DNA of 64,000 nt from Candidatus Heimdallarchaeum aukensis (GCA_021513695.1 CP084166.1:544001-608000), one strand, 5' to 3'; positions 3,961-41,935 are shown, counted from the stretch's first letter. The notes: generated by a model from the letters alone, not told the origin. Made by a program: numbers and translations.

Positions 3961-3961
3961 A

Positions 3962-11875: not shown

Positions 11876-12044
11876 TATTTCATTTTAAAGTAGTTTATTT
11901 ATCAAGTTCAACTTGCATAAAAGAATACAAATAAAACTAATACGAAAAATCGATGAAAAACATAAGATTCACAGAATGGATAAAATAAGACAGAAAAAAA
12001 ATATAATATTTCATATTTTTTTCTAAAAACTAAAATTAGTGAAA

Positions 12045-16826: not shown

Positions 16827-16875
16827 AAATAATTTTCTCGCTTAATTATTTTTAAACTTTTAGTGATTAAAAATC

Positions 16876-19245: not shown

Positions 19246-19670
19246 ACAGAAGCTTGACGGATTTTAAACCCTGAACTATCCACCGCCATAGCTTTCAACC
19301 CTTTTTTTTTCACTATTTCCCCACCTAAGTTTATTATCCACCGCTCTAAAATTTTACTTTCTGTCGCTCTCCACACTGCATGAAAAGTAGATTTGGAAGG
19401 AATCTTCTTCATCCACCCCTCTTCTATCAAAAAATCGCATAGAGACAACTTTTCCTCTAACTTCCTCCAAGCAATTCCTTCTATTCTAGCAATGATCGCT
19501 AAAGCCAGTATCACCCACCTTTCTGCTATTCTTTTTCTCCCTCTCTTACTTTCTCTCGGTTCCTCTTTCACCAGTTTCTTAAGGAAAGGTTCATTAATGA
19601 TTATGAATTCTCTTGCTTTGTGGAGGTCTATGATCTGAAAGAAACTCATACTTCCGACATAAACCCCCAC
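19167..19670 (-). CDS. IS5-like transposase orfA (N-terminal part)
   Basis: Lies within the inverted-repeat-bounded element and overlaps orfB by 79 nt in another frame. Confidence 0.6.
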   Translation of the reverse strand: MGVYVGSMSFFQIIDLHKAREFIIINEPFLKKLVKEEPRESKRGRKRIAERWVILALAIIARIEGIAWRKLEEKLSLCDFLIEEGWMKKIPSKSTFHAVWRATESKILERWIINLGGEIVKKKGLKAMAVDSSGFKIRQASVWRFLKWARGGLKKTSKLNFSGRYTL

Positions 19671-19860
19671 ATTAATAAAAATTAATTTTTGGACATGCTT
19701 GAATAATTAAAATAAAATTCAAGAAAAAATAAAATTTTTTTGAAAACATCCATTTCACTCCTAAATTAAATAATATTAACCAAGAAACTATTTTAGTATT
19801 TCTAGTAAAAATCTAGCTGATTGATAAGTATTTTTAGCAGAAATACTAAGCTTATCGGTG

Positions 19861-20603
19861 ACTTATTTGGTAAAAGTAACAGTTATTAACGGTAGCCCTC
19901 GAAAACAGAAGGGTTATACTGGTTTTTTTTATTCTCAAACCTTTTATTAACGGAATGAAAAAGGCAGGAGGAACAGTAAATGTTTATTATCCTTCAGAGA
20001 TGAAAATCAAACCTTGTATTGGCAATTTAGACTGTTGGGAAAGTGGAAATAAAGAATGTATTATAAACGATGAAATGCAAAAGATGTATACAATCTTAAG
20101 AGAAACAGATATTCTAGCATTAGCTTCACCAGTTTATATTCCTTTACCATCCAAGATGCAGATATTTTAACCGTTTATGCGCTCTTCTTAACCATGAAAC
20201 ATAATTCATAGAAGGTTGTACTAGAGTATCTTTTCGTGAAAATGTAAAAATTTCTAAAATATTGGGTCTAATAACTGGTGGTTGGTGGGAAATAGAAAAC
20301 CTTGATACGGTACTAACTATTTTTAAGGAATTTGCAAATATAGCAAGCGTTAAATTTGTTGGTGCAATCCTTCGTCCTCATACTTGGTTATTAAAAGAAA
20401 ATATACAGAAAAACAAAGAGATTTTGAATAAGATTGAATCTTTAGGTAAACAAGTGATTAAAAGTGGACAGATGGATAAAAGAGATTTAGATTTTGTTAG
20501 CCAACCTCTAACAACAGAGCCTGAATTAAGAAAAATGTTGAATAAAATACATTCTCAAATTTCTTCATTATTATTGAGAGAAAAAAGCAAAAGCAAAGAA
20601 TAG
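19861..20603 (+). pseudogene. Frameshifted NADPH-dependent FMN reductase / iron-sulfur flavoprotein (Isf-like) gene
   Basis: Three frame pieces are present. The first is (L)VKVTVINGSPRKQKGYTG... ending in a stop. The second is ...KPCIGNLDCWESGNKECIINDEMQKMYTILRETDILALASPVY (compact Cys cluster plus flavodoxin-like fold). The third is a C-terminal piece at 20262-20603. Confidence 0.6.
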
Positions 20604-20632
20604 CAAAAAAAGAGGATTATAGAAGAGAGAAA

Positions 20633-21757
20633 CTAAATTATCAATACTCGTTTAAGATTTTGCTCAACTATTTTTTTGAGTAATTTTTCTGAAGTTTCAT
20701 CGAAATTTACAAATCCAGGGTCAATTTTTGAAGCCAGAACAGGATTTTCTTGTAATTCTCTTAAAAGCACATTTAATACAGTCTCTAAAGTTTTATCAAA
20801 TCTTTCTCCAAAAACATATGCTTGGAGAAATCCTGTGGCTGTCGTTCCTATAACTTTGTCTTTGTAAACGACAGTATTGAGTTCAGATTTTCTTTCCATT
20901 ATTTCTTCTAAAGCTTTGGTTACACCAGAGATTAAACCAGAGGTTAAATCTATAGAAACTTCTTTATTAATTTCTTCTTTATCAGAAGTAAAATCATTAT
21001 AATAAACAGGTAATCCACTATCAGTGGTAATCAACAATTGATTTATCTTAGCATTAGATATCATTATATTAAAAGGATCTATTAACAGGGTTATAGACCA
21101 AATAAACCATCCTGCAGCCATTAGAAAAGGTCGTATCGCTCTGAGTATATAACTACTAGAAAAAACTGCAAAAATAACCCAGATAATTATGATGATAAAT
21201 CCAACCACTTGCACAAATAACTGCTTTTTAATGTCTGGATCTTCTGTTCTAAAAAGCTTTGTTGAAATAGGAAGAATAAAAGAAACAATGAAAAAAAGTA
21301 ACATAGGAGCTGTAAGAGCAGGTATCCATATACTATACTTCGCAGTCCAAGCGCCAAGAGTTTCAGAATAACTCAATTCAGTAAAATCAGGTAAAATAAA
21401 AGCTAAAAATAATGCTCCGCCCAAAAAACTAACGATGTTAACAACGGGATGTAGACGATTTGTTTTGAAGTAGATAAAGGAGTAAAAAACGAGAATCATA
21501 CCAAGAATTAATAGACAGTTAAAAAATGACCAAATGGATGAAATTAAGTAAAAGTTATCAAAAATCACCAAGTTTTTAGTAAAAAAGGATGTTATGAACC
21601 GACCTACAGAATCAAATGCCCAAAAAACATAACTCATTCCCAGTAGAAAATGAGAAAGAAAATGTGTTTGTTTGTATGTCTTAAATAAAATAAAACTGCT
21701 TGTAATGAAAGTCAGTTGTTCAAACAAAAATAATCCTATCGAGTAATAAGAAATCAT
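20633..21757 (-). CDS. Polytopic membrane protein with a C-terminal soluble domain (possibly roadblock/LC7-like; weak)
   Basis: About 8 hydrophobic helices followed by a ~130-aa soluble tail (LITTDSGLPVYYND...GLISGVTKALEEIM...). Confidence 0.4.
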   Translation of the reverse strand: MISYYSIGLFLFEQLTFITSSFILFKTYKQTHFLSHFLLGMSYVFWAFDSVGRFITSFFTKNLVIFDNFYLISSIWSFFNCLLILGMILVFYSFIYFKTNRLHPVVNIVSFLGGALFLAFILPDFTELSYSETLGAWTAKYSIWIPALTAPMLLFFIVSFILPISTKLFRTEDPDIKKQLFVQVVGFIIIIIWVIFAVFSSSYILRAIRPFLMAAGWFIWSITLLIDPFNIMISNAKINQLLITTDSGLPVYYNDFTSDKEEINKEVSIDLTSGLISGVTKALEEIMERKSELNTVVYKDKVIGTTATGFLQAYVFGERFDKTLETVLNVLLRELQENPVLASKIDPGFVNFDETSEKLLKKIVEQNLKRVLII

Positions 21758-21948
21758 GTTTAAAAAAACGAGAACTAAAATTTAAATATGTCGAAGAACT
21801 TTTGAGTAATTCTGATAGAAAAGAAAGTTTTGCTTATTGAAATTATCTTGTTCTCTATCGTGTAAACATCAGCTTGAATAGCGTAGTAATTTTAACATGT
21901 TTTTGGTTTGGTCTCTTCAATCTCTTTCTTCTCCCATTATTATTTGTC

Positions 21949-22272
21949 TTACTTCCACTGTTTCTTGGGTCGGATTTTAAGAAGATTGAACCCCATCTGG
22001 TCTTCCTTTTGTTTATGAATACTTATCCAACTCTTATTTCTAGATGTAAGTTTCTTGATGTCTTCTTTCGTTTGTTCATTGATTACAGAAAAAAAGGAAA
22101 GAACAGCTTGGGTAAGATCTTGCTCCTTCTCATGAATTTTCAAATTAATAGTCATTATTTTTTTGCTAAGTTCAAATAACAAAACCTTCCCTTTTTTTAT
22201 GTCATAATAGTCATATACAATTGTTTTAATAGTTTTCAGATTATCAAAAGATGATTGAAGTGTTTGATACAT
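21949..22272 (-). CDS. Small protein immediately downstream of the MNT, a possible HEPN-like partner (weak)
   Basis: 12-bp spacing on the same strand. SRNKSWISIH is only an approximate Rx(4-7)H motif. Confidence 0.3.
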   Translation of the reverse strand: MYQTLQSSFDNLKTIKTIVYDYYDIKKGKVLLFELSKKIMTINLKIHEKEQDLTQAVLSFFSVINEQTKEDIKKLTSRNKSWISIHKQKEDQMGFNLLKIRPKKQWK

Positions 22273-22283
22273 CCATGTTTTGC

Positions 22284-22640
22284 TTAGAGAAAAATTCGAT
22301 CGTAGATCTTCTCCGTACAGTAGTTTATTATGTTGGAAAAAATGATAAAAAAAGGTGCTGAAGTACTGTTAGAGAGAGTATGTATTTGTTCCATACTAAT
22401 AATTTTAATATCCAATTTATGCTGTAGAGAGAGATTACGAAACGAATCTTTAATATCAGTGTATATACGATCCTGAGAAGCTTTTTTCGAAATAACTAAC
22501 AGGTCAATATCGCTGGTTTCAGAAAAAGTTCCACTAGCATAGGATCCTCCCAGCAAAACGGAAACGATTTTTGAGCGAGAAGGAAGTTTTTCAATTTGAT
22601 TAGTAATTATTTTGATAAGTTCATCTTGTAGCTTTGCCAT
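22284..22640 (-). CDS. Minimal nucleotidyltransferase (MNT, Pol-beta superfamily)
   Basis: LLGGSYASGTFSETSDIDLLVIS matches a GS...D.D motif. Confidence 0.7.
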   Translation of the reverse strand: MAKLQDELIKIITNQIEKLPSRSKIVSVLLGGSYASGTFSETSDIDLLVISKKASQDRIYTDIKDSFRNLSLQHKLDIKIISMEQIHTLSNSTSAPFFIIFSNIINYCTEKIYDRIFL

Positions 22641-22646
22641 AATCTT

Positions 22647-24077
22647 TCATCCTTTTTTGGAAAAAAGAAGATAATGTAGACACATCAGTTGTTCAACTAA
22701 TGATAGCGATCTAGTTAGAGAAGAGCAAAAAAGAACACTATATTGAAATTTAATATATGAACAATCCTTGTCTGGATTTATATATAGGGAGAATTTAGTG
22801 TTTGCTGTTTCATTTTCAAAGAGATCAGTTAAAAGTGTTCGATTGTAGTAAATCTTTGTATTTTGTCTATCAACAATCTCATTCTCATCCCACGGAGTAG
22901 CCATCCAACAGTAATGAAGGTATTCATCACCCAGTTTAATTACTGGAATATATTCATCAATATCTGGGGAGGAAGTTAGTTGACGTTCCACATAGCTCTT
23001 ACCATCATATAAACCCATGAAGAGATCATAATCATCAGAAGAGGTTAATTCTTTCTTTGTGTAAATAAAAATATACGAATTATCTTTGCAAGCAATCATA
23101 GATCTATCATAAAATCTTAATCTTTGGTCAAATTCTTTTATTACTTTTGTTTCAAAATAAGAAGCGTTGAATAATCGTGTTCTGAGTATTTTACCACTAT
23201 TAGAAAACAGACCAGGATCGTAGGAAAAAATATCACAATATTCATCTGTGAGGAACAAAGCAATTGGTAGATAATTATTTTCTGCTGTACCCAAAGAATA
23301 TAATTTCCAGCCTTCCACCTTCCATTTTACGGCAAGCAAGGGATAAGAAGAGTCGTAATCTAAATGATTTTCCCACAAAATAAAGACATTTTCACCTCTT
23401 TCCTTAAAATCGCCAGGATCATAGGTGGAATACGACCTTACTTCAGGGAATGTATTATTAAGAAAGAACCATGAATGATTTTTTTCTCGATAAATAGCGG
23501 GTATAGTGCCTTTTTCTTCAATATAACGATATAAATAGGCCATGGATAAGTTTCCTTCATCATTGTAGTACCAATTAAGTAATGATAACATAGTATCCAT
23601 ACGTAAATGAACGGGAAGTTCACGAAATGGCTCATATATTTCCCAAGCTCTTGTTCCTCTCAATTCCATAACTGAACTTCTGTAATCAAAAAATGAGTCA
23701 CGATAATAAAGATAGGTTATTGGTTTGTTTTGTACATTTAAAATAATGTTAACCTCAAGAAAGTCTAGAAATGTAGTTTTTATAATTGGAAAATAATCAA
23801 AATAAGATTCTTTTAGATTTAATTGGCCATAAACCGCACCAGGACAACTATTATTTGCACTTGTAATAACAAAGTGAATGTAACTATCATTTTCAACAAC
23901 AAAATCAGTGTAAGTTCCATTTGCAAATAAGTAATTAGGATACAGATAGGAATGTGTCTTTTTACCATCTGAATTATTGTTCGGTGGTTTAGGATAAAGA
24001 ATAACAATAAAAGAAATAGTTAGTCCTATAATGATTAAACTGGTTATAGCTATTCCAATTATTATTTTTTTCTTCAT
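22647..24077 (-). CDS. Secreted or membrane-anchored hypothetical protein (476 aa)
   Basis: N-terminal signal anchor, Tyr/Asn-rich sequence and no recognisable domain. Confidence 0.45.
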   Translation of the reverse strand: MKKKIIIGIAITSLIIIGLTISFIVILYPKPPNNNSDGKKTHSYLYPNYLFANGTYTDFVVENDSYIHFVITSANNSCPGAVYGQLNLKESYFDYFPIIKTTFLDFLEVNIILNVQNKPITYLYYRDSFFDYRSSVMELRGTRAWEIYEPFRELPVHLRMDTMLSLLNWYYNDEGNLSMAYLYRYIEEKGTIPAIYREKNHSWFFLNNTFPEVRSYSTYDPGDFKERGENVFILWENHLDYDSSYPLLAVKWKVEGWKLYSLGTAENNYLPIALFLTDEYCDIFSYDPGLFSNSGKILRTRLFNASYFETKVIKEFDQRLRFYDRSMIACKDNSYIFIYTKKELTSSDDYDLFMGLYDGKSYVERQLTSSPDIDEYIPVIKLGDEYLHYCWMATPWDENEIVDRQNTKIYYNRTLLTDLFENETANTKFSLYINPDKDCSYIKFQYSVLFCSSLTRSLSLVEQLMCLHYLLFSKKG

Positions 24078-24221
24078 CCTTTTTCACCTTTTTTACGATA
24101 AATTACATAAGTACTCTATTAAGTCTTCGACATCTATACATCCGTACCCTACTCTATAGGAATAATAAGTAGAATAAGTGCCTAGGTTATTTATTGGTTC
24201 TCCAACTTTATCCCAGTGTAG

Positions 24222-24557
24222 TTAATAATAGGAACCGATATTTCTACCACTAGGATCATTCTCGCATGAATAATCAAGACATGCTCCGAAATCTTGATAC
24301 GTTAAAGGATGAGCAGGATCAAGATGATAGTGCATACGTGAAGCTAAATAAGCAGTTACAGCTACTTGAGGTGCAGACATGCTGGTTCCAGTAGCAATAA
24401 TATTTTCCACCACTCCATCATTATCCAAATCGCTCTTCATTTCCACTTTAAATGATGGAGATACACAATCAACAGTCGCTTCACTCAACCCATGATCTTG
24501 CCAAAACAGACTACCAACATACGCACCATCAGTGTTTGGAGAATAGGTGAAAGACAT
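24222..24557 (-). pseudogene. C-terminal fragment of a subtilisin-like (S8) serine peptidase
   Basis: Contains the catalytic-Ser signature GTSMSAPQVA. Only ~110 aa are present, and the upstream Asp and His regions are absent. Confidence 0.55.
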
Positions 24558-24562
24558 TCTAC

Positions 24563-25276
24563 ATGTTTCATGACTTTCAAGTTCAAGATGGTATTAACCT
24601 TTACAATTCCAATGGTTTTATTATAAAAAATAATACCATTTCCTATGGCGGGTATGGACTATTTGTATCTGAATCTTCACACGGGGTATATACTAATAAT
24701 ACTTGTATAGAAAATAGCAAATATGGTGTTTATATAAAATATGGATACAACATTTCTATCAATGAAAACAACTGCAGCGCTAATGATCAAGGTATAAATC
24801 TTTACAACTCTTCTACAATTTATATCCACAATAATAGCATAAGTAAAAACACTATTGGACTGACTTTTGATCTCTCTAATCATTCAATCATCACTTTTAA
24901 TTCATTTGAGAAGAATGAACAATATGCAATAATTATGGATTCTTCATCTTCTTCTAATCTCATCCATCATAATACGTTTATTGACAACAACTTGCAAGGA
25001 ACATCTCAAGCTTGTGATAATGGTCATAATAATACTTGGTATGACCAATCAACAAAAACTGGTAATTATTGGTCTGATAGAAAAGGGATAGGAAAATATT
25101 ACATAGATGGTAATAGTAAATCGTATGATAAATACCCCCTAAAAAATCTCCCTCAACAATGTGCTGAAAAAACTTCTATTGATTTTCTCATCATTCTGAT
25201 CTCTTTTCTCTCTACAGTTATTTTGTCTTATGTCATAAGAAACAAGTATGCATTCAGACAATTACGATTTAGATAG
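24563..25276 (+). pseudogene. 5'-truncated duplicate of the beta-helix surface protein gene at 32042-33466 (corresponding to its region ~32780-33466)
   Basis: About 93% nucleotide identity by direct comparison. The fragment begins mid-domain at ...DFQVQDGINLYNS and abuts the subtilase fragment on the opposite strand. Confidence 0.65.
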
Positions 25277-25279
25277 GTT

Positions 25280-25560
25280 TTATCCATCAGCTAATCCAAT
25301 CACTTCTCCTCTCTTAGTGAGATAAACATCAATTTCCGCTGCTTTTTTTGCTATAACATAGTCAATAGGTAGTATATCAAATCTAGATAAGTCCTGCTCA
25401 GCTTCCTCAAGTTTATTTGAAAATATAGCTGGCTTGTTACTATAAAGATAGTATATACCGCGTAAATATTCTTGGGCAGTAATCACAGATATGGCTTTAT
25501 AGCTTGGCCCCCTATCAATTTGCTTTGCTTTTTCTAAAGCATTTGGAACAGAGTTTGATA
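25280..25560 (-). pseudogene. Possible PIN-domain (VapC-like) fragment, truncated at its 3' end by the duplicated segment
   Basis: ...FDILPIDYVIAKKAAEIDVYLTKRGEVIGLADG* resembles the middle of a PIN domain. The ORF stops 4 nt from the junction. Confidence 0.3.
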
Positions 25561-25567
25561 CATATAT

Positions 25568-25840
25568 ATGATTAAGAATATGATTAAGATGGCGAAGAAT
25601 ATAGCAGTCTCTGATGAACTCTACAAATTGCTGAAACGGTTAAAACGTCCTGGTGAAAGTTTTACTGATGTGATTTTAAGATCAATAAAACATTCAACCT
25701 CTATAATGGATATTGCAGGTAAAAAAACAATACCCCTAGAAGAGTGGGAAAAACTCAAAAAATTATTTGAAGCGAAAGAAATAGAGGATTACAAGTGTAA
25801 AAGAGATTTGCTTGAGAAGGCTAATAATGTATCTTATTGA
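25568..25840 (+). CDS. Small antitoxin-like protein (archaeal VapB/CopG-like). The probable true start is the MAKNIA codon at 25589.
   Basis: MAKNIAVSDELYKLLKRLKRPGESFTDVILRSI is characteristic of small archaeal antitoxin-like proteins. Confidence 0.5.
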   Translation: MIKNMIKMAKNIAVSDELYKLLKRLKRPGESFTDVILRSIKHSTSIMDIAGKKTIPLEEWEKLKKLFEAKEIEDYKCKRDLLEKANNVSY

Positions 25841-25916
25841 CACAGATTTTATAATATATATTCATATGTATTATTAAAAATTTCCTAATCACATGCTCCA
25901 AAAAAAATAAAGAATG

Positions 25917-26981
25917 TTAATTATCATAGAATCGTAAATAGAAATAACTGCTAGGATCACCATCTTCAAGTACAGGAACAGAAGTGTAGGCATCAACATA
26001 ATCTTTTATTGTGTCAAAAACATTTTCTAAGTCAAGGTCAAAATTTATCCATTCACAACTGGAGCTATCCCAGTATTGTTTTATAAAATAACCTGTAAGA
26101 GCTCCATGGTAGTTGCTTCCATCCGGCATATAATTAAAGAATTTAGCTTGAGTAGTTTCATTGTATCTACACGCTGCAATCATAAGTACATTCTCTGAGG
26201 CTTGAATAGACATTATTTCATTCATTCCTCCAGAAAAGCATGAATCAATAAAAACAAGTAATTTTGATTCATAAGTCGTAGTTGAATCAGAACAAGCAAA
26301 TTTATCAAAAAGTATCTTTAAATTATAGTCATAAAGAAATTCATCTATTCCATAAGCTTGAACACTATGCTCTTCTTCATTATAACTATATCCATGCCCC
26401 GAGTAAATAAAGAATATTAAGTCATTTGGATCAGAATTTTCAACAACATTAGCTGTAACATCGTAAATATTTTGTAGTGTTGCTTGATGATAATCAAAGT
26501 TAAAGATACCACCTCCAGGACCTGATGTGTCAGGTAAATCAAAAAGACTTTCTCGATTTACAGATTCTTCGTGGCCAAGTAGGTGAACATTCATAGAAAA
26601 AGAAACAATATCATAAGTTTCTGGTTGTTGATCAAATAATTCAAAAAGAGCTGAAGCCCACATACACCATAAAATTGCATCTTCCCACGCACCAGCACAA
26701 TATTGTCCAGTTTGATCTTGACCAATACCGATAATAATAAACTCTGCCTTAATTTTATTGTCAGTGCCACTAGGATAGTCTATTACTGGAATAGTTGGTC
26801 CATTAACTCCTCCCCCATCACCGGTACCAGGATCAAGTTCAAAACCTTTTGTCAATAAGACTTCTTGAAAGAGTGTATTATTTATACTAGAACATAGTAA
26901 TGTCGATAAAATAAATAACGTAATAAAAATATTTTTATTAATTTTATTCACAGACCTATTAAAAAAATAACAACATCCCAT
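25917..26981 (-). CDS. Secreted caspase-fold cysteine peptidase (C14/C13-like)
   Basis: Signal peptide present. His-Gly dyad in FFIYSGHGY and catalytic Cys in VFIDSCFSGG. Confidence 0.6.
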   Translation of the reverse strand: MGCCYFFNRSVNKINKNIFITLFILSTLLCSSINNTLFQEVLLTKGFELDPGTGDGGGVNGPTIPVIDYPSGTDNKIKAEFIIIGIGQDQTGQYCAGAWEDAILWCMWASALFELFDQQPETYDIVSFSMNVHLLGHEESVNRESLFDLPDTSGPGGGIFNFDYHQATLQNIYDVTANVVENSDPNDLIFFIYSGHGYSYNEEEHSVQAYGIDEFLYDYNLKILFDKFACSDSTTTYESKLLVFIDSCFSGGMNEIMSIQASENVLMIAACRYNETTQAKFFNYMPDGSNYHGALTGYFIKQYWDSSSCEWINFDLDLENVFDTIKDYVDAYTSVPVLEDGDPSSYFYLRFYDN

Positions 26982-27042
26982 ATTTAAATATTTCGGATAA
27001 TAGGAAACAATATTTATTAATGTCTATAAAGCACATACCATA

Positions 27043-29805
27043 ATGTTGATAGTAAAACAGTATAGAACCAAAATAGTTTTTATTATTGTAGTCTATTCTT
27101 TATTTATTAGTTCAAGCGTTAATTTATCTCAAGAAAAGATATATGCCTATGAAGTTCAAAAAGATCATAATAATCTAAAAAAAATTGAACAGAATAGCAG
27201 TTTTTCTATTTATAATAGTTCTAAATACAGAGTATTATGGAAATTAACCATTCCATCACCATATTATGGAGATATTTCATTTATTGATTTAACAGATGAT
27301 AATAAACTAGATTTACTAATTGGAAAGCCTGATGAAGGATTATATGCTATAAATGGATTTAATGGTTCTATTATTTGGACAAAAAATTACTCTTCCAATA
27401 GTTGGTGGTTTCCTTATGTCAAGTGTTATGGAGCAAATTTTTTGGACATTGACTCTGATAATGAACTTGAGATCATTTTTAGTGTTGCTAATAATCGTAC
27501 TATTAATGCTTTAGAAAAAAATTCTACAGATATTTGGTCATATTATTGTAATGATGGTAATGGTAATACTGTTTTGGTTGATACAAACAATGATGGTTAT
27601 AAAGAACTTCTTTTTGGTTTTTCTGGAGGAATAAAAACTCTTTCTCCTTTTAACAGAACTGTTCTGTGGAGCTATGAAAACGATCTTCTTTCTTCTGGAG
27701 AATCATATCTGACTATAGCAGATTTAAACAACGATGGATTTGATGATGTAATTGATGCTTCATCTTTTGGTAATCTGATTGCAATTAATGGAAAAACACA
27801 TACACTTCTATGGGAAAGAACTTTACCTAAAAAAAATAAAGATAAAGAATTAAGACATCTTTCTAGGCCTGTTGCTGGAGATATGGACGGAGATGGTCAA
27901 TTAGAAGTGTTTGTAAGTGCAGGAAAAGAATATAAGAATATTTTTTTCACACTTGATGGAAAAACAGGAAAAACAATTTGGAAGGTTGAAGGAGAAAAAT
28001 TTAGTCGTGACACAGTTCTTGGAGATTTAAATGGAGATAATATTTTAGATATCGTTTCAACAACTACTGATGGTAAAATAATTGTGCTTGATGGTTTAAA
28101 AGGAAAAACTTTATGGACATTTCAATTTGGCAAATCATTGAACAATCCAGATAGCTATGGATTACCTCTTTCTTGCCCTGTTTTAGGTGACCTTAATAAT
28201 GATAACAGATTAGATGTTTTAATAGGCTCATGTGATGGTAAATATTATATCCTTGACGGATTAACAGGTAACCCTTTGTTTATTTTTGACAATCCTTCAA
28301 TATCTGAAGGACATAGAAAAACAGTAGATATTATTGATACAGGTGCTATCGTAGATTTAGACGGAGACGGAGAAAATGAAGTTGTTCTTGTCTGGACAGG
28401 TTTAGGTGTCTACGCTTACGATTTTGAGGAGGAATTAGCAGGAAAAAGAATTTTCTGGGGGACAAAGAGAGGAAATTCTTTGCAATGGGGAAATGCTTTA
28501 GCATTAGATCAAGATAATGACAGATTATCAGATTACAGTGAAAAATTATTTGGGACAGATAAAACGAATCCTGATACTGATGGAGATGGATTACCTGATG
28601 GTTATGAACTCAGTTACTTAAATACATCACCAACTCTATATGATACTGATAATAATGGAATTAGCGATGGTGAAGAAGACTTTGATGGTGACGGATTATT
28701 AAATGAACAAGAATTTAGACGCTTTACTGACCCATTTATATTTGATTCTGATTTTGATGGAATAAGAGATAAGCTTGACCTTTTTCCTTATTTAAATGAC
28801 TATATCGTTTATTCTAAAATTCTTGGAATTGTTTCTTTGTTTAGTTTTTCATTGTATAGTTACAAAAACTACAGGAAAAAAGGTTTAGTTTATCGAATTA
28901 TAAACTACGCTTACCTTAAAACAAAAAGGTTCCTTAAAAAATGTAAAAACTTTTTTAAAAAAACATCAGACGAAGTATTCTACTTTCTTCTCGTCAATAA
29001 AGGGTTAACAATAGCAAAAACCATTCTTGCCTTTATTCTTTCTAATATACTAATTATTCCTTTTTTCATTCCAGCTTGGAGAGAAAGAATGTATCTTAAG
29101 AATACTGAAGCACATATCACAATTTCTGATACAGGATTCCATAATATGGGATACATTGATCATTCGGGAGAATGTGTAGGAAAATACTGGCTTAGAACAG
29201 AAGATGGAGTATTCTATGCAATAAGTGGATATAAAGGAAACTTACCATACGGAGATTTCTATATTCGTGGTGAAGGATTTACTTATGATTCTGGAGATTT
29301 GGGGTTGAACTATCTTTTTGAAATGTCTCCTGAAGATGTGAAAGAAATAAAAGCAGCTCTTAGAAGACCTTGGTTATTGTTACTAGGATTAGTAGCTGTA
29401 AGCTTAGTGTTTTACTTAACATTCTACATTCTACAAAAGCTCATAAGCAAAATAACAGAACAGTCGTTTAAAGGAACACCATTTGAAGAGATGATTGCCA
29501 GTTTCCTCGAAGAAGTAAAGAAAATTACTTTTAGGAAACAGGAAAGTTTTGCAATGCAAGGATTATGGTTTGATCTAATAGAATACTACTGGGACAAAGG
29601 GTTAAGTAAATACGTCGACATTGATAAAAAACAATTAGTTCAGAGTAAAGGAGCACAAAAATATTTCATCAAAGACGATATTCAAGTTAAAGATGTTATT
29701 ATATACCTTGTTCTGTCTGATCCAGAAGCTCAAAAGACTAAGTTACCTATCATCATCAGGACCAATAGATTAAAAAAATCTAAACTGGAAAAAATAGATA
29801 ATTAA
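27043..29805 (+). CDS. Receptor-like membrane protein (920 aa). It has a signal anchor, FG-GAP/PQQ-like beta-propeller repeats (DLNNDGFDDV, GDMDGDGQLEV, GDLNGDNILD), TSP3-like Ca-binding repeats (DTDGDGLPDGYE...), TM helices, and a ~300-aa C-terminal region.
   Basis: Repeated DxDxDG FG-GAP signatures and TSP3-type repeats read from the translation. Confidence 0.7.
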   Translation: MLIVKQYRTKIVFIIVVYSLFISSSVNLSQEKIYAYEVQKDHNNLKKIEQNSSFSIYNSSKYRVLWKLTIPSPYYGDISFIDLTDDNKLDLLIGKPDEGLYAINGFNGSIIWTKNYSSNSWWFPYVKCYGANFLDIDSDNELEIIFSVANNRTINALEKNSTDIWSYYCNDGNGNTVLVDTNNDGYKELLFGFSGGIKTLSPFNRTVLWSYENDLLSSGESYLTIADLNNDGFDDVIDASSFGNLIAINGKTHTLLWERTLPKKNKDKELRHLSRPVAGDMDGDGQLEVFVSAGKEYKNIFFTLDGKTGKTIWKVEGEKFSRDTVLGDLNGDNILDIVSTTTDGKIIVLDGLKGKTLWTFQFGKSLNNPDSYGLPLSCPVLGDLNNDNRLDVLIGSCDGKYYILDGLTGNPLFIFDNPSISEGHRKTVDIIDTGAIVDLDGDGENEVVLVWTGLGVYAYDFEEELAGKRIFWGTKRGNSLQWGNALALDQDNDRLSDYSEKLFGTDKTNPDTDGDGLPDGYELSYLNTSPTLYDTDNNGISDGEEDFDGDGLLNEQEFRRFTDPFIFDSDFDGIRDKLDLFPYLNDYIVYSKILGIVSLFSFSLYSYKNYRKKGLVYRIINYAYLKTKRFLKKCKNFFKKTSDEVFYFLLVNKGLTIAKTILAFILSNILIIPFFIPAWRERMYLKNTEAHITISDTGFHNMGYIDHSGECVGKYWLRTEDGVFYAISGYKGNLPYGDFYIRGEGFTYDSGDLGLNYLFEMSPEDVKEIKAALRRPWLLLLGLVAVSLVFYLTFYILQKLISKITEQSFKGTPFEEMIASFLEEVKKITFRKQESFAMQGLWFDLIEYYWDKGLSKYVDIDKKQLVQSKGAQKYFIKDDIQVKDVIIYLVLSDPEAQKTKLPIIIRTNRLKKSKLEKIDN

Positions 29806-29816
29806 TAAAGCATTTT

Positions 29817-30299
29817 TTATTTTGTTCGTAGTAATCTTGAAAGATGATAACCACAGCTTACAGGTAGTATTGGATGCTTTTTTCCGCTGATTGATATTGA
29901 AATATTTTTTATTATTTTTATTTCAGAATAATGACGCCAACCTTTACTTAAAACAAGAGGGTAGTATGATTTCTTAATATTTTTTGAACAATATTCTTCA
30001 ACTATAGTTTTTACTACTTTTGAACCATTTTCTAGTTTTTCAATGACTTCTTTAGCTTTTGCACTTTTGTTTTTCAATTCAGCAATTATAATATACAAAC
30101 AATGATTAGTCTCAACAATAATAATACAATCTGATGATTTTTCCTTAATTAACGAGTCCCCATCTAATATTATATATTCTTTATCAATATCAATTTTTAG
30201 TTCACAGTTTCTTTCATAACATTTCTTTCTTGAATAGTCCGAATAAAATTGGCTAACAGTTTGAAAAAAAGTCATAGAAAATCCCATTGAAATAATCAT
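29817..30299 (-). CDS. Hypothetical protein with a possible PD-(D/E)xK nuclease-like core
   Basis: SDCIIIVETN ... YIIIAELK is compatible with D...ExK spacing. No other support. Confidence 0.3.
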   Translation of the reverse strand: MIISMGFSMTFFQTVSQFYSDYSRKKCYERNCELKIDIDKEYIILDGDSLIKEKSSDCIIIVETNHCLYIIIAELKNKSAKAKEVIEKLENGSKVVKTIVEEYCSKNIKKSYYPLVLSKGWRHYSEIKIIKNISISISGKKHPILPVSCGYHLSRLLRTK

Positions 30300-30967
30300 T
30301 CTAGTTCTTTTTTTAGTTTAAAAATTTCTTCATGGTATCTCTTTTCCTTTTCTTACTGATATTAATAGAGTTATTATAAGCTATAAACAAAACTGTTATA
30401 ATAAAAGATTATTAGAAATTATAAAATTAATGTGAGTACAAAGTTGTTTTCATTATCAAAACATACTCGAAAAACGCTTAAATTTGACACCTATTACAAT
30501 TATTAAAACAATACCAAAAAATGAGATTGTCCCAATCACATACGAAGGATACATTTATTCCCATATAGAATGACTGCTTTCCCCATAGATCCAATTTTAA
30601 ACACTACTTTTATTATCGTTTAAACTTGGGATATTCTGATTCTAGTGCATATTCTTATGCAAGATATAAAGCATAGTACTAACATAAAGACCAAATTTCT
30701 CTGAAAAATGATTAATGCAAATATATTTGGTTGCTATATTAGTAAAATAACAATACCACAAAGATGTTTTTTAATTAAAGATTGAAGAAACAGGTAGAGT
30801 ACAATGAATCTTGTACTAAATAAGGTCAAATTAACACCTGTTATTCATCCTTTACAAAAAGGACAATCCTGTTCGTTAACAAATCTATAACTATATGTCA
30901 AAAATGATATATAGATGTTTAAAATAATGAATATTTGATAGAAAAGTATGTATTTTGTTGATAAAAA

Positions 30968-32026
30968 ATGAGCAATAATAAACATACTACAATCGCATTA
31001 ATAATAGTCATATTGTCATTAGCTCTTGTTTTTATTAAACCAACAGGAGCTGGTTGGGTAGAATGGGAAGGGAAAGTGTATAATGAATGGAATAATGGAG
31101 TAAGTGGAGCAATAGTAAAACTAAAACAGAATAATGTTGTTGTTAAAACAACAACCACAGATAGTAATGGGGAATATTCTCTCATATACTATACTTCTAG
31201 CTATGCTACATACAAAATTACAGTGACTAAGGAGGATTATAATAGTCAAACAAAGACTGTTCCCAAGACTTCCCTTGGAGAACCCTGGGTTGTAGATTTT
31301 AATATTCGCTATGTTATGAAATATGCTGTGATCGTGGGAATAGAAGATTATGCTTATCTTAATGATTTACAGTATACAGAAAATGATGCAGATGCTTGGT
31401 ACGACTTCTTATGTGATACATCTTTAGATTTCGATGAAGTGGATCTATATAAAGGTAGTAATGCATATGAATCCGCCATCAAAAACGCTTTAGAAAATAT
31501 GGTAAATATAGCTGATAAAGGTGACATTATTGCATTTATTTTCTCAGGGCATGGTTATAAAAAAAGTAGTACTGAACATGCCCTTTCTATGTGGGATGCT
31601 GATGGTAATGGTAACACAGGTTACTTATATGATTCAGAACTAGCAACTATTTTAACTAGTTCAGAAGCTGAAAGAATATTTCTATTTTTTGACTGTTGTT
31701 ACAGCTATGGAATGCAAGAGGAGTTGGCAGAGATAGGAAGCAAAGATCATATCCTTCTTACTAGTTCTTGTGATAAAAATGAAATTTCCTATTATGACAA
31801 AGCAAATGAAAAGAGTTGTTGGACGCAAAGTTTTTTAGTAGAATCATGGATTAATAATAATGAGCCAGAAGATCCTGTAATAGATGTTTTCAACGATGCA
31901 ATAATTTATTTCAGAGCCCATATAACTAATGGAGATGATTATTACTCAACGGATCAGAATCCGCAATTGTGGAACCCTTATGGAAACAATTTTCGATTAA
32001 CTAAGTATGGAATCTCACCACCATAA
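30968..32026 (+). CDS. Secreted caspase-fold peptidase with an N-terminal carboxypeptidase-regulatory-like (transthyretin-like) domain
   Basis: VKTTTTDSNGEYSL motif. His-Gly in IFSGHGY and Cys in LFFDCCYSYG. Confidence 0.6.
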   Translation: MSNNKHTTIALIIVILSLALVFIKPTGAGWVEWEGKVYNEWNNGVSGAIVKLKQNNVVVKTTTTDSNGEYSLIYYTSSYATYKITVTKEDYNSQTKTVPKTSLGEPWVVDFNIRYVMKYAVIVGIEDYAYLNDLQYTENDADAWYDFLCDTSLDFDEVDLYKGSNAYESAIKNALENMVNIADKGDIIAFIFSGHGYKKSSTEHALSMWDADGNGNTGYLYDSELATILTSSEAERIFLFFDCCYSYGMQEELAEIGSKDHILLTSSCDKNEISYYDKANEKSCWTQSFLVESWINNNEPEDPVIDVFNDAIIYFRAHITNGDDYYSTDQNPQLWNPYGNNFRLTKYGISPP

Positions 32027-32041
32027 GGAGAGAAAAAAAGT

Positions 32042-33466
32042 ATGAAACTAAATAAAAAAGTGTTGACTATAATATTGTGCACAATCATCTTACTGTTAGT
32101 AGGTACTTCAAATACAACTAGAGCAGTTCATCAAGAAAAGAACAGATTCGCACATACATTACACACCAATATTAGTTTAATCACTCCAATTAATATCACC
32201 TCTGATGAAGATTTCTCTAAGTATGCATATGATGGTTCAGGAAGAGAAGAGGATCCATATATAATTGAGGGATATGAAATAACAGGGCAGGATGTTACAG
32301 GGATATACATAGCGAATACTACGAAATATTTCATCATACGTGACTGTGTTATTGAAGGTACTAGTCAAGGAATTCATATTGTAAATGTGTCGGATGGGAC
32401 AGCATTAATCACAAATAATATTTGTAAAAATATAGTAAACCAAGGTATAATCGTTGAAAACACTAATTATGCGATATTACATAACAATACTTGTAGTGAA
32501 TCTAATATGTATGGCATCCATAGCCGATTCTCAGATTACCTTATATTGGAACAGAATACTTGTAATAAAAACGGAATGTGTGGAATTTTTGTAGATTACT
32601 CAACTTCGACTGTGATTAGGAAGAATATTGTTATTGATAATGTGCTCTCAGGTATTATTGTACAAGATACAGTAAAAACTCTCATCTCCCAGAATTATTG
32701 TTTTGATAATGATGGCATGGGTGGAATAGTGCTCTCAAGATCTCTAAATGCGACAATTATAAACAATATTTGTGTTGATGACTTTCAAGTTCAAGATGGT
32801 ATTAATCTTTACAATTCAGATGGTTTTATTATAAAAAATAATACCATTTCCTATGGCAGGTATGGAATATTTGTATCTGAATCTTCACACGGGGTATATA
32901 CTAATAATACTTGTATAGAAAATAGCAAATATGCTGTTTATATAAAATATGGATACAACATTTCTATCAATGAAAACAACTGCAGCGCTAATGAGCAAGG
33001 AATAAATCTTTACAACTCTTCAACAATTTATATCCACAATAATAGTATAAGTAAAAACACTATTGGACTGACTTTTGATCTCACGAATCATTCAATCATC
33101 ACTTTTAATTCATTTGAGGAGAATGAACAATATGCAATAATTATAGATTCTTCATCTTCTTCTAATCTCATCCACCATAATACGTTTGTTGACAACAACT
33201 TGCAAGGAACATCTCAAGCTTGTGACAATGGCAATAATAATACCTGGTATGACCAATCGACAAAAACTGGTAATTATTGGTCTGATAAAAAAGGAGGAAA
33301 ATATTACATAGATGGTAGTAGTAAATCGTATGATAAATATCCCCTAAAAAATCCCCCTCAACAATTTGCTGAAAAAACTTCTATTGATTTTTTCATCATT
33401 CTTATATCTTTTCTCTCTTCTACAGTTATTATGTCTTATGTCAAAAGAAACAAGTATGCTTTATGA
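32042..33466 (+). CDS. Beta-helix (PbH1/NosD-like) repeat surface protein with a C-terminal TM anchor (474 aa). It is a paralog of the beta-helix domain of receptor genes A and B.
   Basis: Repeated right-handed beta-helix units (...NNxCxxN..GI.L...). GTSQACDNG...GNYWSD cap and C-terminal hydrophobic helix. Confidence 0.7.
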   Translation: MKLNKKVLTIILCTIILLLVGTSNTTRAVHQEKNRFAHTLHTNISLITPINITSDEDFSKYAYDGSGREEDPYIIEGYEITGQDVTGIYIANTTKYFIIRDCVIEGTSQGIHIVNVSDGTALITNNICKNIVNQGIIVENTNYAILHNNTCSESNMYGIHSRFSDYLILEQNTCNKNGMCGIFVDYSTSTVIRKNIVIDNVLSGIIVQDTVKTLISQNYCFDNDGMGGIVLSRSLNATIINNICVDDFQVQDGINLYNSDGFIIKNNTISYGRYGIFVSESSHGVYTNNTCIENSKYAVYIKYGYNISINENNCSANEQGINLYNSSTIYIHNNSISKNTIGLTFDLTNHSIITFNSFEENEQYAIIIDSSSSSNLIHHNTFVDNNLQGTSQACDNGNNNTWYDQSTKTGNYWSDKKGGKYYIDGSSKSYDKYPLKNPPQQFAEKTSIDFFIILISFLSSTVIMSYVKRNKYAL

Positions 33467-33727
33467 CAATTATGAGTGATTCGAATGTTAAGGTTATTAC
33501 CCAGATGTTAAATTCTAGTTAAGCTAGTTATTCAGCTAGTGCAGCTGCTTTAGGAAGCATTAAATCTTTGTTTATTGTTCTTCTTTTAGTTTTCTACTTT
33601 GGCTTAAAGTTTAAATATTCTATATGAATGAAAAAAATCAATTTTACTCTTGTAGGACTTGCAATCATTTTATCTGGATGCGATTAAGAATTTTTTAATA
33701 ATACATATGAATGTATATGTGATTAAG

Positions 33728-33937
33728 ATGGCTAAGAATATAGCAATCTCTGATGAACTCTACAAATTGCTGAAACGTTTAAAACGCCCTGGTGAAAGTT
33801 TTACTGATGTGATTTTAAGATCAATAAAACATTCTACCTCTATAATGGATATTACAGGTAAAAAAACAATACCCCTAGAAGAATGGGAAAAACTCAAGAA
33901 ATTATTTGAAATGAAAGAAATAGAGTTACAAGCGTAA
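33728..33937 (+). pseudogene. Second, 3'-truncated copy of the antitoxin-like gene (duplicate of 25589-25840)
   Basis: About 95% nucleotide identity. A deletion gives a premature stop (…KEIELQA*). Confidence 0.45.
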
Positions 33938-34166
33938 AAGAGATTTGCTTGAGCAGACGATAAAAGATTTCAATTGGTTTATTATTAGCAATAATAACAA
34001 ATCCAATCGGAAATGAATCTGAAATTCCATTGGGAAAAAATTTTTCTTTAATAGAGACACCTATTTTTATTTTTGTTTTTGGACTTTTTTCAATTCTAAT
34101 TTATTTTCAGTAAAACAAAAATTATGTGGAACTGTTGCAAAATTAACATTGACATCAAAAGAATTA

Positions 34167-36116: not shown

Positions 36117-39100
36117 TTACACCGCTGTTGCCCACTCTTCACCAAACAACTGTGCTTGCTCCATTATTAATTTAATCGCATTAGGAGTTTGATCTGGTGG
36201 ATATTTATACTTTCGCAATAGTTTACGAATCTCAATACGCATGCGAGCTTGAACACTTTTTCTTACTGTGAAATCAATTGTAGCAGAATTTCGAACCTTA
36301 GCAACTAACTCTTTTGCTATTTTCTTTAATGTTTCATCACCCATTTCTCTTACAGCACTTTCATTTGTAGCTAAAGCATCATAAAAAGCAACTTCATCAT
36401 CATTTAATCCAAGTTCTTCTCCCTTTTTGAAAGCTTTTTGCATATCTTTCGCTAATTGAATCAATTCCTCTAAAATTGCAGCAGAAGCTATTGTACGATT
36501 GATATATTTGTTAATAGATTTCTGAAGTAATTCCTCAAAAGAACGAGATTGAACTAAATTCTTTTTAGCTCTAGAACGAATTTGATCCTTCAACAATTTA
36601 TTTAAAACCTCAACAGCTAAATTCTTTTGTTTTAATCCTCTAACTTCTTCAAGAAATTTATCAGAAAGAATAGAAATTTCTGGTTTATCCAATCCTGCTG
36701 CAGAAAAAATGTCTATAACATCTTCTGAAATAACAGCTCTAGAGATTAATTGTCTAATTGCATAATCAACTCTTTCTTTACGTTCTTTGGAAGGAGTAGT
36801 AGCTTTTACAAAACCAGCACGTACAGCTTGGAAAAAAGCTAAATCATCTCGAATAGCTAAAGCTTCTTCATGAGGAATAGCAAGAGAAAAGGCTTTATTT
36901 AGTGCTGAAAGGTTATCTAAAAACCTTTTTTTAGCACTTTCTGGAGTTTCATTAGGTAAATTAAGAATATGTTCCATAGCAGCAGGAAGTAATTGTAATC
37001 TTTGTAAAGCACTTCCTGTTTTAAACAAAGAATAATCAAAATTGTAAAACATATCTGAAACAATTTCATAATATGTTTTCATTAATTCTACAGCTTTTTC
37101 TTGAGGAATAGCTGTTTGTTCTCTTGACTCTACATTAGAATACCTAGATAATGCTTGCTTAAGAAAATAACCTATACCAATATAATCGACAATAAGACCT
37201 CCAGGTTTATCTTTATATACTCTATTTACTCTAGCTATCGCTTGCATTAAATTGTGTCCTTGCATTGGCTTATCTACATACATTGTATGCATACTAGGCA
37301 CATTAAAACCTGTTAACCACATATCTCTTACAATAACAAGTTTAAGTTCGTCCTCAGGATCTTTCATTCGATTTTCAATAATTTTTCTTTTTCTTTTAGG
37401 CCTAATGTGTGAACGCAATAATTGATCATCAGCAGCAGAACCGCTAATTACAACTTTAATGAAACCTTTTTGATCATCATTAGAATGCCACTCAGGCCTT
37501 AGTTTTATTATTTCATTATACAATAAAGCACAAATCCTGCGAGACATACAAACAATCATACCCTTTCCATCTATAATCTCAAGTCTTTTTTCAAAATGAT
37601 TTACAATATCCTCAGCTACTTCACGTAACCTATCGGGATCAGAAACAAGCCTTTCGACTCTTGACCACTTAGATTTCAATTTTTCTCGAGCATATTCTTC
37701 TTCATCTTCTGTGATTTCATCAAATTCTTCATCGATTTGACCCTTCAATTCTTCATTAAACTTAATTTTAACTAACCTTGATTCATAATAAATAGGAACA
37801 GTAGTTTTATCTCTTATTGCTTGTGAAATATCATAAATGCTAATATAATTACCAAAAACATGAATCGTATTTCTGTCGACAAGTTCTACAGGAGTAGCAG
37901 TAAAAGCAATAAAAGAAGCATTAGGCAGAGCTTGACGAATATAAGCAGCAAAACCTTCTTTTAATGAACCTTTTTCAGAAAGTTTTTTTCCAAAAGAATA
38001 ATGACTTCTATGAGCCTCATCAGCAATAACAATGATATTCCTCCTCTCAGATAAAAGAGGATATTGTGCATTCTCTTCAGGAAGAAATTTTTGTATTGTA
38101 GTGAAAATTACACCACCACCGGTTGTTTTAAGCAAATCCTCAATATTATCTTTTGTCGCTTCATGATTTTTTGGATTGTACCTCCTTGCTGTGGCTTGAA
38201 TAGAAGTTTGACGAAGAAGATCCCTTGATAAAGTAAAAGTTGTAAAAAGTTGGTCATCTAAATCGTTTCTATCAGTAATAACAACGACAGTAGGATTGTT
38301 AAGTAGCTGGATTAACTTTGCGGTATAAAATAACATTGTAAGACTCTTACCAGAACCTTGAGTATGCCAAACAACACCAATCTTTTGATCACCATCACTT
38401 CCAGTAGCTCGTAAAGTTTCCTTAATAGCACGATTAACAGCATGATATTGATGATAAGCAGCAGATTTCTTGACTATTGTTCTACCATCGTCTTCAAAAG
38501 TAATAAAAAATCTGATGTAATCTAAAAAACGAGAAGGTTCTAAAATACCACGAAATAAAACTTCAAGAGATAAGATTGATTGGTCAGCTAATATCTCTCC
38601 CTCAATAGTGCGCCAGGGAGTAAAACGCTCCCAATTAGCAGATAAACTGCCAGCTTTAGATTCATAACCATCACTAATAACAATTAACTCATTAGTCCTA
38701 AATAAAGAAGGAATTTCTTTTTTATAAGTCTGAATTTGATTATAAGCATCTCTTGTAGTCGTTTCTTCTTTAGATGGGTTCTTAAGCTCAATAACTACTA
38801 AAGGAATACCATTAACAAAGAGAACAATATCAGGTCGGTGATTGTGTTTGTCAGAACCAACACCTTCTATAACAGTAAATTGATTTACAGCTAAAAAATC
38901 ATTATTCTCAGGATTCTCAAAATCAATAACTCGTACTATATCTCCCTTTACACGACCATCATGGTAATAAGAGACTTCTACACCATCAACTAACATTCTA
39001 TGAAAAGAACGATTGTTTGTTAATAAATCAGGAGAATCAATACGGTTGAGTTTCTGCAAAACATCTTCAAGCACTTCTTTAGGTTTATCAGGATTAAGTT

Positions 39101-40854: not shown

Positions 40855-41122
40855 CAGTCAAAAATAGAAAAAAAATATAAAAGGCTTTTCTAAATAACAA
40901 CATTAGTTAAAGTATGTGGATTCTTACTAACAACCTTTGAATATAATTCATTTTTTATTTTTTGAATTATCTTCGCTCTATATTCCTCTTCTTTTTTGAA
41001 TCTAAATTAAACAATATAATTTTGTTCAACAGATAATTTTATATTGGGTTATAACCCATTACCGCCCAGAAGTCTAAAAAATAAAATAAGAGGCGATAAA
41101 AATAGGATATGGATCAGGAAGA

Positions 41123-41524: not shown

Positions 41525-41556
41525 AAAATGTAAAAAAAAATTAAAAAATACTCTTT

Positions 41557-41934: not shown

Positions 41935-41935
41935 C

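Follow-up and report, generated by a model that had tools for sequence, protein, structure and literature searches.

A truncated NosD-like gene and a disrupted vapB(C) cassette in Candidatus Heimdallarchaeum aukensis: probable remnants of a second surface-protein module in a strain-variable island

We analysed a 64,000-nucleotide stretch of the genome of Candidatus Heimdallarchaeum aukensis (GCA_021513695.1, CP084166.1:544001-608000; hereafter the window, with positions counted from its first letter), in which two blocks of DNA between positions 24,222 and 33,937 occur twice. Each copy holds a gene for a NosD-like right-handed beta-helix protein and a vapB antitoxin gene; the NosD-like gene lacks its 5' part in the first (copy A) and is intact in the second (copy B). 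Copy A is probably the decaying remnant of a second NosD and vapB(C) module that stands beside the intact copy B in a strain-variable island. The locus is an ordinary patchwork of deletion, inversion, point decay and recombination, and no new type of element or mechanism is indicated. The features that carry this reading are as follows, with their basis in brackets (L004 is a related metagenome scaffold, described below).

24096-24560, minus strand: 3' remnant of a subtilase (Peptidase S8) gene, a pseudogene (tblastn with homologues)
24558-24567, no strand: junction J1, an illegitimate join (NosD alignments; tblastn)
24563-25276, plus strand: copy A, 5'-truncated NosD-like right-handed beta-helix gene, UJG41290.1 (Pfam; 94% identity to 32771-33472)
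25280-25567, minus strand: remnant of a PIN (VapC-like) toxin gene, codons 10-104 (tblastn of the L004 PIN)
25562-25859, no strand: inverted segment of 298 bp holding vapB and the first 9 PIN codons (inverted relative to related contigs)
25580-25840, plus strand: vapB antitoxin gene, copy A (PF02697)
25827-25877, plus strand: PIN N-terminal stub MYLIDTDFII, then out-of-context codons and a stop (translation; tblastn)
25854-25894, minus strand: native upstream region (putative promoter/operator) of the vapB cassette (inverted match of 33678-33718)
32042-33466, plus strand: copy B, intact NosD-like beta-helix surface-protein gene of 474 amino acids (aa), UJG41297.1 (Pfam)
33667-33956, plus strand: vapB cassette, copy B (upstream region 33667-33718; vapB open reading frame, ORF, 33725-33937)

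Anatomy of the two copies

Comparison of the window with itself by BLASTN placed the first block at 24564-25264 against 32771-33472 (94.0% identity over 705 nt, E=0) and the second at 25578-25816 against 33717-33953 (94.1% over 239 nt), and a repeat finder returned the same two blocks. These values agree with an earlier interpretation of this DNA made without database searches (the sequence-only reading), which had put the identity of the two blocks at 93-95%. Both programs also gave an inverted match, absent from that reading, of 41 nt and 90% identity between 25854-25894 and 33678-33718. The idea of one contiguous mosaic duplication did not hold up: homology is interrupted between the blocks (25265-25577 against 33473-33716), and the vapB block is parallel to its counterpart only through a 298-bp inversion in H. 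aukensis. Collinear homology over the whole segment, as a simple segmental duplication in a single event would leave, was not found.

Copy A has 237 codons (its ORF is called NosD' below), which correspond to approximately codons 244-474 of copy B. Beta-helix repeats (PF05048 and PF13229) score above the cutoff in both copies, with 84.5 and 70.4 bits in A and 130.5 and 128 bits in B. The signal or N-terminal part, including the hydrophobic leader, is missing from copy A, which retains the C-terminal hydrophobic anchor; copy B and the orthologue in the sister species Ca. H. endolithica are full length. Copy A is a probable pseudogene; copy B is intact and presumably expressed. The two copies have diverged by ~5% and differ by 14 synonymous and 15 nonsynonymous changes, while the substitutions unique to copy A number seven synonymous and four nonsynonymous. 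Because this synonymous share is far above that of neutral decay in an AT-rich genome, both copies would appear to have evolved as working genes for most of their divergence, which makes the truncation of copy A comparatively recent.

The truncation lies at J1, where, as the sequence-only reading had it, the beta-helix gene is cut and stands 5 nt from an opposed subtilase fragment, the two ORFs running from 24563 to 25276 (+) and from 24222 to 24557 (-), the latter a 111-aa ORF annotated as UJG41289.1. Direct Pfam and PDB searches with the subtilase fragment gave no match, and a word-index homologue search returned only the fragment itself and the remnant in L004. An exhaustive HMMER search found it to be 47-54% identical to residues ~278-379 of proteins of 405-440 aa that match Peptidase_S8 (PF00082). 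Three homologues (P0133, P0134 and P0139), searched by tblastn, matched 24533-24096 and 24560-24096 at 38-54% identity, reading through an in-frame TAA at 24222-24224 and extending 42 codons beyond it, to 24096; the codon at this place in L004 is CAA (Gln). The remnant corresponds to residues ~276-423 of homologues of ~423 aa. It holds the Ser motif GTSMSAPQVA and lacks the part with Asp and His, so that a catalytic domain with its Asp-His-Ser triad is not present in 24096-24560, and residues 1-275 had no tblastn match anywhere in the window. The subtilase gene was already decaying, because it carries the in-frame TAA and L004 has a different, shorter remnant.

At J1 itself, subtilase homology ends at ~24560, in a conserved 'RMS' motif, and NosD homology starts at ~24564-24567. 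The ATG of NosD' arises from the join, so that its product begins MFHDFQVQ where intact copies read ...CVDDFQVQ. One illegitimate deletion or join is all that this arrangement requires, rather than the repeated joining of fragments from both strands that had been proposed.

The PIN-vapB cassette and NosD alleles in related contigs

L004 is a 9,143-bp scaffold from an ENA metagenome, of Guaymas type, with a full-length NosD (+), a 104-aa PIN (-), an 86-aa VapB (-), a caspase (-) and a 919-aa FG-GAP protein (+). It aligns to the window in these segments:

L004 1-685: window 23616-24311, 94.8% identity
L004 683-2176: window 31980-33475, 96.9%
L004 1484-2476: window 24572-25567, 96.6%
L004 2471-2768: window 25859-25562, reverse strand, 99.7%
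L004 2763-7164: window 25854-30258, collinear, 98.75%
L004 7160-7253: start of vapB (+), 92.6%

At its junction 24311|31980 the subtilase is joined through ATG microhomology to the last 47 bp of caspase 2, the gene directly 5' of copy B, and at 30258|33724, a deletion-type junction, a 160-aa ORF is truncated and joined to the start of vapB (+). From these junctions it follows that the FG-GAP and 160-aa genes of the L004 ancestor were followed on their right by a vapB (+), as they are in the window. The window and L004 lineages lost different parts of the subtilase.

The PIN-like fragment noted earlier at the end of NosD' is real, with the correction that its stop codon is at 25280-25282 and the spacing is 3 nt, not 4. 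The ORF comprises 68 aa (25280-25486, -) and lies 3 nt past the NosD' stop. Residues 10-105 of the L004 PIN match 25567-25280 at 99% (tblastn), and an in-frame extension, 25280-25576, matches positions 19-85 of the 120-position PIN profile (E=1.4e-4, 22.9 bits against a cutoff of 23.6 bits). The L004 PIN covers positions 1-85, and no strain examined retains the C-terminal ~35 profile positions. That PIN had been cut as part of the rearrangement in this genome was not borne out. A 104-aa short PIN ending 3 nt past the NosD stop is found in L004 and in two further assemblies, L033 and L034, and a third, L035, shares the NosD/PIN junction, the contig itself stopping at window 25516, within PIN and short of vapB. 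Because the junction is present in these four other assemblies, it is old and common across the population, and not a cut made in H. aukensis.

L033 and L034 have the same NosD-PIN-vapB(-) arrangement as L004. It is in the 298-bp segment that the window departs from them: 25859-25562 matches on the reverse strand, at the 99.7% given above for L004 and likewise at 99.3% for L033 and L034. The endpoints of the segment lie in (AT)n runs with a perfect 8-bp inverted repeat, ATACATAT at 25558-25565 and ATATGTAT at 25864-25871, and ATACATAT and ATATGTAT recur at equal spacing in the window and L004. Among the genomes compared, the segment is inverted in H. aukensis alone. A stub with the conserved LIDTD motif is now found at 25827-25856 (+) and PIN codons 10-104 at 25567-25280 (-), and the native upstream region of vapB (25854-25894), a putative promoter, was left in place, parted from its gene. 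Because copy A vapB is reversed in the related contigs, the same-orientation look of the second block is secondary, the two vapB copies having been opposed relative to NosD before the inversion.

The antitoxin-like gene is, as previously claimed, intact in one copy and broken in the other. Copy A vapB is an intact ORF of 86 aa, or 90 aa with a start at 25568 (ORF 25568-25840), and its product is 98.9% identical to L004 VapB at the amino-acid level. The small ORF of copy B, called at 33659-33937 (+), is frameshifted by the loss of 2 nt near 33925, and its homology stops after 33956. Both exceed the gathering score of PF02697 (VAPB_antitox; E=7.7e-12 for A and 2.3e-11 for B). No PIN remnant was found by tblastn after copy B vapB. 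With respect to what defines a VapBC module, a VapB-type antitoxin domain is present and a full PIN domain with conserved acidic residues is not; vapB directly 5' of, and co-directional with, vapC is seen in L004, L033 and L034 and not in the window, where vapB is on the strand opposite the PIN remnant. Exact-protein look-ups of the 68-aa PIN ORF, the vapB start variants (including that of 90 aa), NosD' (237 aa) and NosD (474 aa) returned no record, nor did that of the predicted partial product of a Logan contig expected at 24988-25637.

The copy B layout occurs alone in L006 (JGI, 4,140 bp), which is collinear with window 31806-33958 at 94.5%, spacer and vapB (+) included, and has an upstream context like that of H. 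endolithica. At L006 3630-3720, the ORF after vapB shares the first nine PIN codons (MYLIDTDFI) and then continues as an unrelated-looking stretch of 30 aa, the point of divergence being the spot where the window inversion breaks PIN. This codon 9/10 point may be either a recombination hotspot or the limit of conservation among vapC paralogs.

The 3' half of NosD was aligned for seven sequences (window A, window B, L004, H. endolithica, L006, L033 and L035). Over the body of this alignment, window B and L004 share one haplotype (X) and window A, H. endolithica and L006 another (Y), while at the 3' end one haplotype (a) is found in window A, L004, H. endolithica, L033 and L035 and a second (b) in window B and L006. 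Each body haplotype is found with each 3' haplotype (X+a, X+b, Y+a and Y+b), and 331 of the 946 pairs of informative sites fail the four-gamete test. L004 is 98.2% identical to copy B over 24572-25140; over 25141-25282 it is closer to copy A (94.5%) than to copy B (83.8%). The copy A haplotype is nearest to H. endolithica and L006, not to copy B. Because other strains carry these haplotypes in different combinations, NosD alleles and paralogs in the population frequently undergo homologous recombination or gene conversion, and the recombination among surface-protein paralogs that the sequence-only reading had invoked is upheld to this extent.

History, assembly support and rival explanations

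In the history that we favour, the two copies are diverged versions of a module made up of a NosD-like surface-protein gene and a vapB(C) cassette. The copy B version comprises a caspase gene, full NosD, a spacer and vapB (+); copy A is what is left of a version with NosD, short PIN (-), vapB (-), a caspase and the FG-GAP protein, which related strains keep intact or nearly so. The simplest common ancestor would have had a subtilase (-) diverging from a caspase 2-NosD module, followed by the PIN-vapB-caspase 1-FG-GAP genes and a second NosD and/or vapB (+) module. Three separate mutations would then account for the present form of copy A. An old, population-wide event would have placed the C-terminally short PIN 3 nt beyond the stop codon of NosD. 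An illegitimate deletion or join at J1 would then have removed the 5' 243 codons of NosD and ~275 codons of the divergent subtilase, leaving two 3' halves head to head, after which inversion of 298 bp between the 8-bp inverted repeats (ATACATAT/ATATGTAT, in AT runs) would have flipped vapB and the first nine PIN codons, killing PIN and uncoupling vapB from its upstream region. The nonsense codon in the subtilase remnant and the 2-nt frameshift in copy B vapB are signs of further decay. The order of these events is the one that we infer.

Several points weigh against this history. At least three events are required to relate the window to L004, and no related contig holds an intact subtilase neighbour, so the ancestral state of J1 is a reconstruction. 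Tandem duplication and import of an allele from a related strain fit the second module equally. NosD' is open for 237 codons and has an ATG, and may retain residual expression. As regards the assembly, 24641-25666, including the left inversion boundary, depends on the published sequence and k-mer reasoning only. The alternative phasings of the two copies, X+a and Y+b, are moreover the haplotypes of L004 and L006, so that a phase switch in assembly would look biologically plausible; the 72-nt spacing of the diagnostic sites, described below, makes such a switch unlikely.

The genome comes from a mixed enrichment culture (Wu et al., 2022; PMC8813620): PE150 reads were assembled in SPAdes-meta with k up to 99, LRScaf built scaffolds using Nanopore data, and the result was polished by pilon at 346x coverage. 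We judged support for the assembly from contigs and k-mers, not reads. Two Logan contigs (k=31) from run SRR15988954 are 100% identical to the window: L001, equal to 24641-20785, crosses J1, and another, equal to 32849-25666, crosses the right inversion boundary and links the genes downstream of copy A to the region upstream of copy B. From a second run, SRR15988958, contig L008 equals window 30269-25666, and L037 holds caspase 2 and the start of NosD B (~30255-32849, by gene coordinates only, unaligned). The re-assembled contigs of the two runs agree with the window at 99.9-100%, and break points predicted from shared 31-mers coincide with the ends of the Logan contigs, as for a true two-copy repeat. 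Nowhere are the copies identical for longer than 66 nt (NosD block) or 47 nt (vapB block), which is short of both k=99 and the 150-nt read length, and the sites that separate X/Y from a/b are 72 nt apart, inside one 99-mer and one 150-nt read. Since contigs cross the junctions, their ends match the 31-mer prediction, the identical runs are short and the diagnostic sites lie so close, an assembly chimera is unlikely. In L008, three gaps of 1 nt against the window sequence break the FG-GAP gene into three ORFs, and the L008 and L037 contigs break at an A7 run (30259-30272) a few nt from the L004 junction at 30258; these gaps and breaks are probably coverage or homopolymer errors, or may instead reflect strain heterogeneity.

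That the junctions, the phasing or the small inversion are nevertheless errors of an Illumina-first, Nanopore-scaffolded assembly, or chimeras of co-occurring strains, is in our estimation very improbable. The mixed culture, the SPAdes-meta and LRScaf procedure, the match of the alternative phasings to haplotypes seen elsewhere and a left inversion boundary without independent support would all be in keeping with such errors, against which stand the k=31 re-assemblies of two runs, in which J1, the right inversion boundary and the connection between the downstream side of A and the upstream side of B all reappear, the NosD/PIN junction in four other assemblies, identical runs of at most 66 nt (under k=99 and 150-nt reads), contig ends exactly where shared 31-mers predict them, and the polishing at 346x. 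A single recent intragenomic duplication, in which ~1.4 kb (the NosD 3' half and vapB) was copied into the subtilase gene and a small indel then arose between the blocks, also seems improbable, if somewhat less so. It would explain why the blocks agree in order and orientation and are almost equally similar (94.0% and 94.1%), but copy A vapB is inverted relative to the related contigs, so that the ancestral vapB orientations were opposed, and the DNA from PIN through the 160-aa ORF is collinear with L004 at 96.6-98.75%, i.e. a long-standing module of its own. The 5% divergence, about half of it synonymous, likewise points to long independent evolution as working genes, and the nearest relatives of the copy A haplotype are H. 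endolithica and L006 rather than copy B.

The remaining alternative gives the rearrangements a function, the truncated NosD being a silent donor cassette for gene conversion and/or the vapB segment a programmed invertible switch. The strong mosaicism of the NosD 3' half across strains, the open NosD' frame, three sites (24631, 24640 and 24964) at which A and B share a state absent from the other sequences, and the inverted repeats that flank the segment in both orientations are what such a system might display. There is, however, one truncated copy only and no cassette array, the perfect inverted repeat, embedded in AT-rich DNA, is just 8 bp, no gene for an invertase or recombinase lies alongside (integrase-type ORFs occur no nearer than window positions ~15-16 kb and 40 kb), contigs of two runs cross the right inversion boundary unbranched in a single orientation, and the neighbouring genes are decaying (nonsense codon, frameshift, truncated PIN); we hold such a function to be highly unlikely. 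The sizeable repeats, nearby invertase and presence of both orientations in one population that mark an inverton are not seen at the contig level, and the vapB inversion was rejected as a programmed switch on the 8-bp repeat and the single orientation in contigs. If the truncated NosD were a silent donor that diversifies the 3' (membrane-proximal) part of the expressed surface protein, and the vapB inversion a reversible toxin-antitoxin switch, for which our expectation is scarcely any higher, the archaeal lineage closest to eukaryotes would possess, in the donor, a cassette mechanism akin to antigenic variation.

The surrounding island and comparison with known systems

The two modules, the decaying one and its intact counterpart, lie in a strain-variable island of ~19 kb, roughly 21.9-41.0 kb in the window, with flanks conserved in H. 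endolithica (genome-wide average nucleotide identity to H. aukensis, 88%). The limits are set by homology with the H. endolithica locus, which stops at 21936 and resumes at 41017, the NosD part aside: this locus (L002) matches the window only at 18439-21936, 31806-33475 and 41017-44531, the middle match being a single 477-aa NosD orthologue and the remnant of an upstream caspase gene. Pfam and an ORF survey of the window show the island to be rich in surface-protein paralogs, and it contains caspase-like proteases, an FG-GAP/TSP3 protein, an MNT-type nucleotidyltransferase, a type I restriction remnant and insertion sequence (IS) fragments. The genes nearest to the two copies are:

25917-26981, minus strand: caspase-like C14 protease (caspase 1), travels with copy A (Pfam)
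27043-29805, plus strand: FG-GAP/TSP3 protein of 920 aa, travels with copy A (Pfam)
29817-30299, minus strand: 160-aa ORF, travels with copy A
30968-32026, plus strand: caspase-like C14 protease (caspase 2), directly 5' of copy B (Pfam)

Caspase 2 is complete in H. aukensis alone, with remnants of 220 bp in H. endolithica and L006 and of 47 bp in L004. The two caspase genes were considered as part of the duplication and rejected, their mutual identity being only 28%. Scans of the window for tRNA genes and Rfam families were both empty, and there is therefore no tRNA-linked integration site in the window; a promoter and terminator scan stayed at background level, with a bacterial model that is not applicable to an archaeon. 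Scanning a genome collection, which seemingly does not include H. aukensis, with a 476-aa neighbouring ORF gave no match, and with the 920-aa FG-GAP protein gave bacterial TSP3-repeat matches only and no close relative. A metagenome scan with the caspase 2 protein gave a single distant match (27% identity), and no strain turned up with an intact subtilase or with caspase 2 as its upstream context.

Both edges of the island and its flanks hold further mobile or toxin-antitoxin-like genes. An IS-like direct repeat (16875-17651 and 40092-40855, 94.7% identity) has its right copy, with a 232-aa rve-type integrase ORF (40149-40847), exactly at the island edge, where homology with H. endolithica resumes at 41017; the left copy holds a 120-aa ORF without a Pfam match. 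An intact-looking rve integrase of 312 aa lies at 15062-16000 and a DDE_Tnp_1 fragment at 18724-19245. At the left edge, 21949-22640, an MNT-type nucleotidyltransferase (22284-22640) and a small partner ORF form a second toxin-antitoxin-type module bordering the variable region, and the corresponding edge in H. endolithica (L002 2765-3620) has a HepT-like and NTP_transf_2 pair. The restriction remnant, at 36117-39960, has a full-length HsdR (1051 aa) and an HsdS of just 235 aa with a single specificity domain, and no methylase (HsdM) ORF precedes the IS copy at 40.1 kb; this type I restriction-modification system is probably inactivated. Further upstream, 5352-13993 holds three large NosD/TSP3-repeat surface paralogs (5636-8335, 8618-11875 and 12045-13541) with internal repeats in a ~69-nt register. 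A 93% duplicate there (5352-5648 against 8622-8920), which covers gene ends and downstream sequence, is paralog turnover of the same kind as in the duplicated locus. Upstream of these paralogs, a radical SAM/SPASM protein with a PqqD-like N-terminal domain (3890-5284) beside a 566-aa membrane-like ORF suggests a peptide-maturation gene pair.

The main value of these results lies in annotation and quality control: UJG41289 and UJG41290, with the small ORFs nearby, are best treated as pseudogene fragments rather than genes, and the repeat as something other than an assembly error. The locus offers a compact, well-resolved example of turnover in an island of surface-protein and defence genes, in the closed genome of an Asgard archaeon, through illegitimate deletion, short-repeat inversion, toxin-antitoxin decay and frequent homologous exchange of a beta-helix gene between strains of Pescadero- and Guaymas-type vents.

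In the paper that describes this genome, non-tandem repeats make up ~3% of the sequence and local variability between the two Heimdallarchaeum species is strong, which accords with what is seen here; its analysis differs in a 95% identity cutoff for repeats and a focus on transposases and CRISPR, and it makes no mention of this locus or of beta-helix genes, toxins or pseudogenes (Wu et al., 2022; PMC8813620). As in VapBC type II cassettes, the related contigs have PF02697 and PIN in the canonical overlapping vapB-to-vapC order, and, as in genomic islands that carry such cassettes, several cassette copies lie within a variable island. In contrast, no complete module is left in the H. aukensis window: PIN is without its C-terminal third in every strain seen and, in the window, also without its first nine codons including the conserved Asp, and the second vapB is frameshifted and PIN-less.

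The formation of pseudogenes by illegitimate deletion (with microhomology or no homology) between divergent genes and inversion between short inverted repeats are general mutational mechanisms. The former is matched by the opposed 3' halves joined within ~5 nt and by the L004 junctions with 3-5 nt of microhomology, the latter by window endpoints in an 8-bp inverted repeat and AT runs; the match is less close in that an intact subtilase-NosD ancestor was not recovered, and deletion, rather than insertion of a fragment, is the course that we think probable. Silent-cassette gene conversion diversifies surface proteins in Neisseria (pilE/pilS) and Borrelia (vlsE), and the locus resembles these systems in the limited, 'works like' sense that a promoterless, 5'-truncated copy lies near an intact one and that the 3' part is mosaic across strains. 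It differs from them in having a single truncated copy, no cassette array or dedicated recombination signals and decaying surroundings, and ordinary recombination between strains can account for most of the mosaicism.

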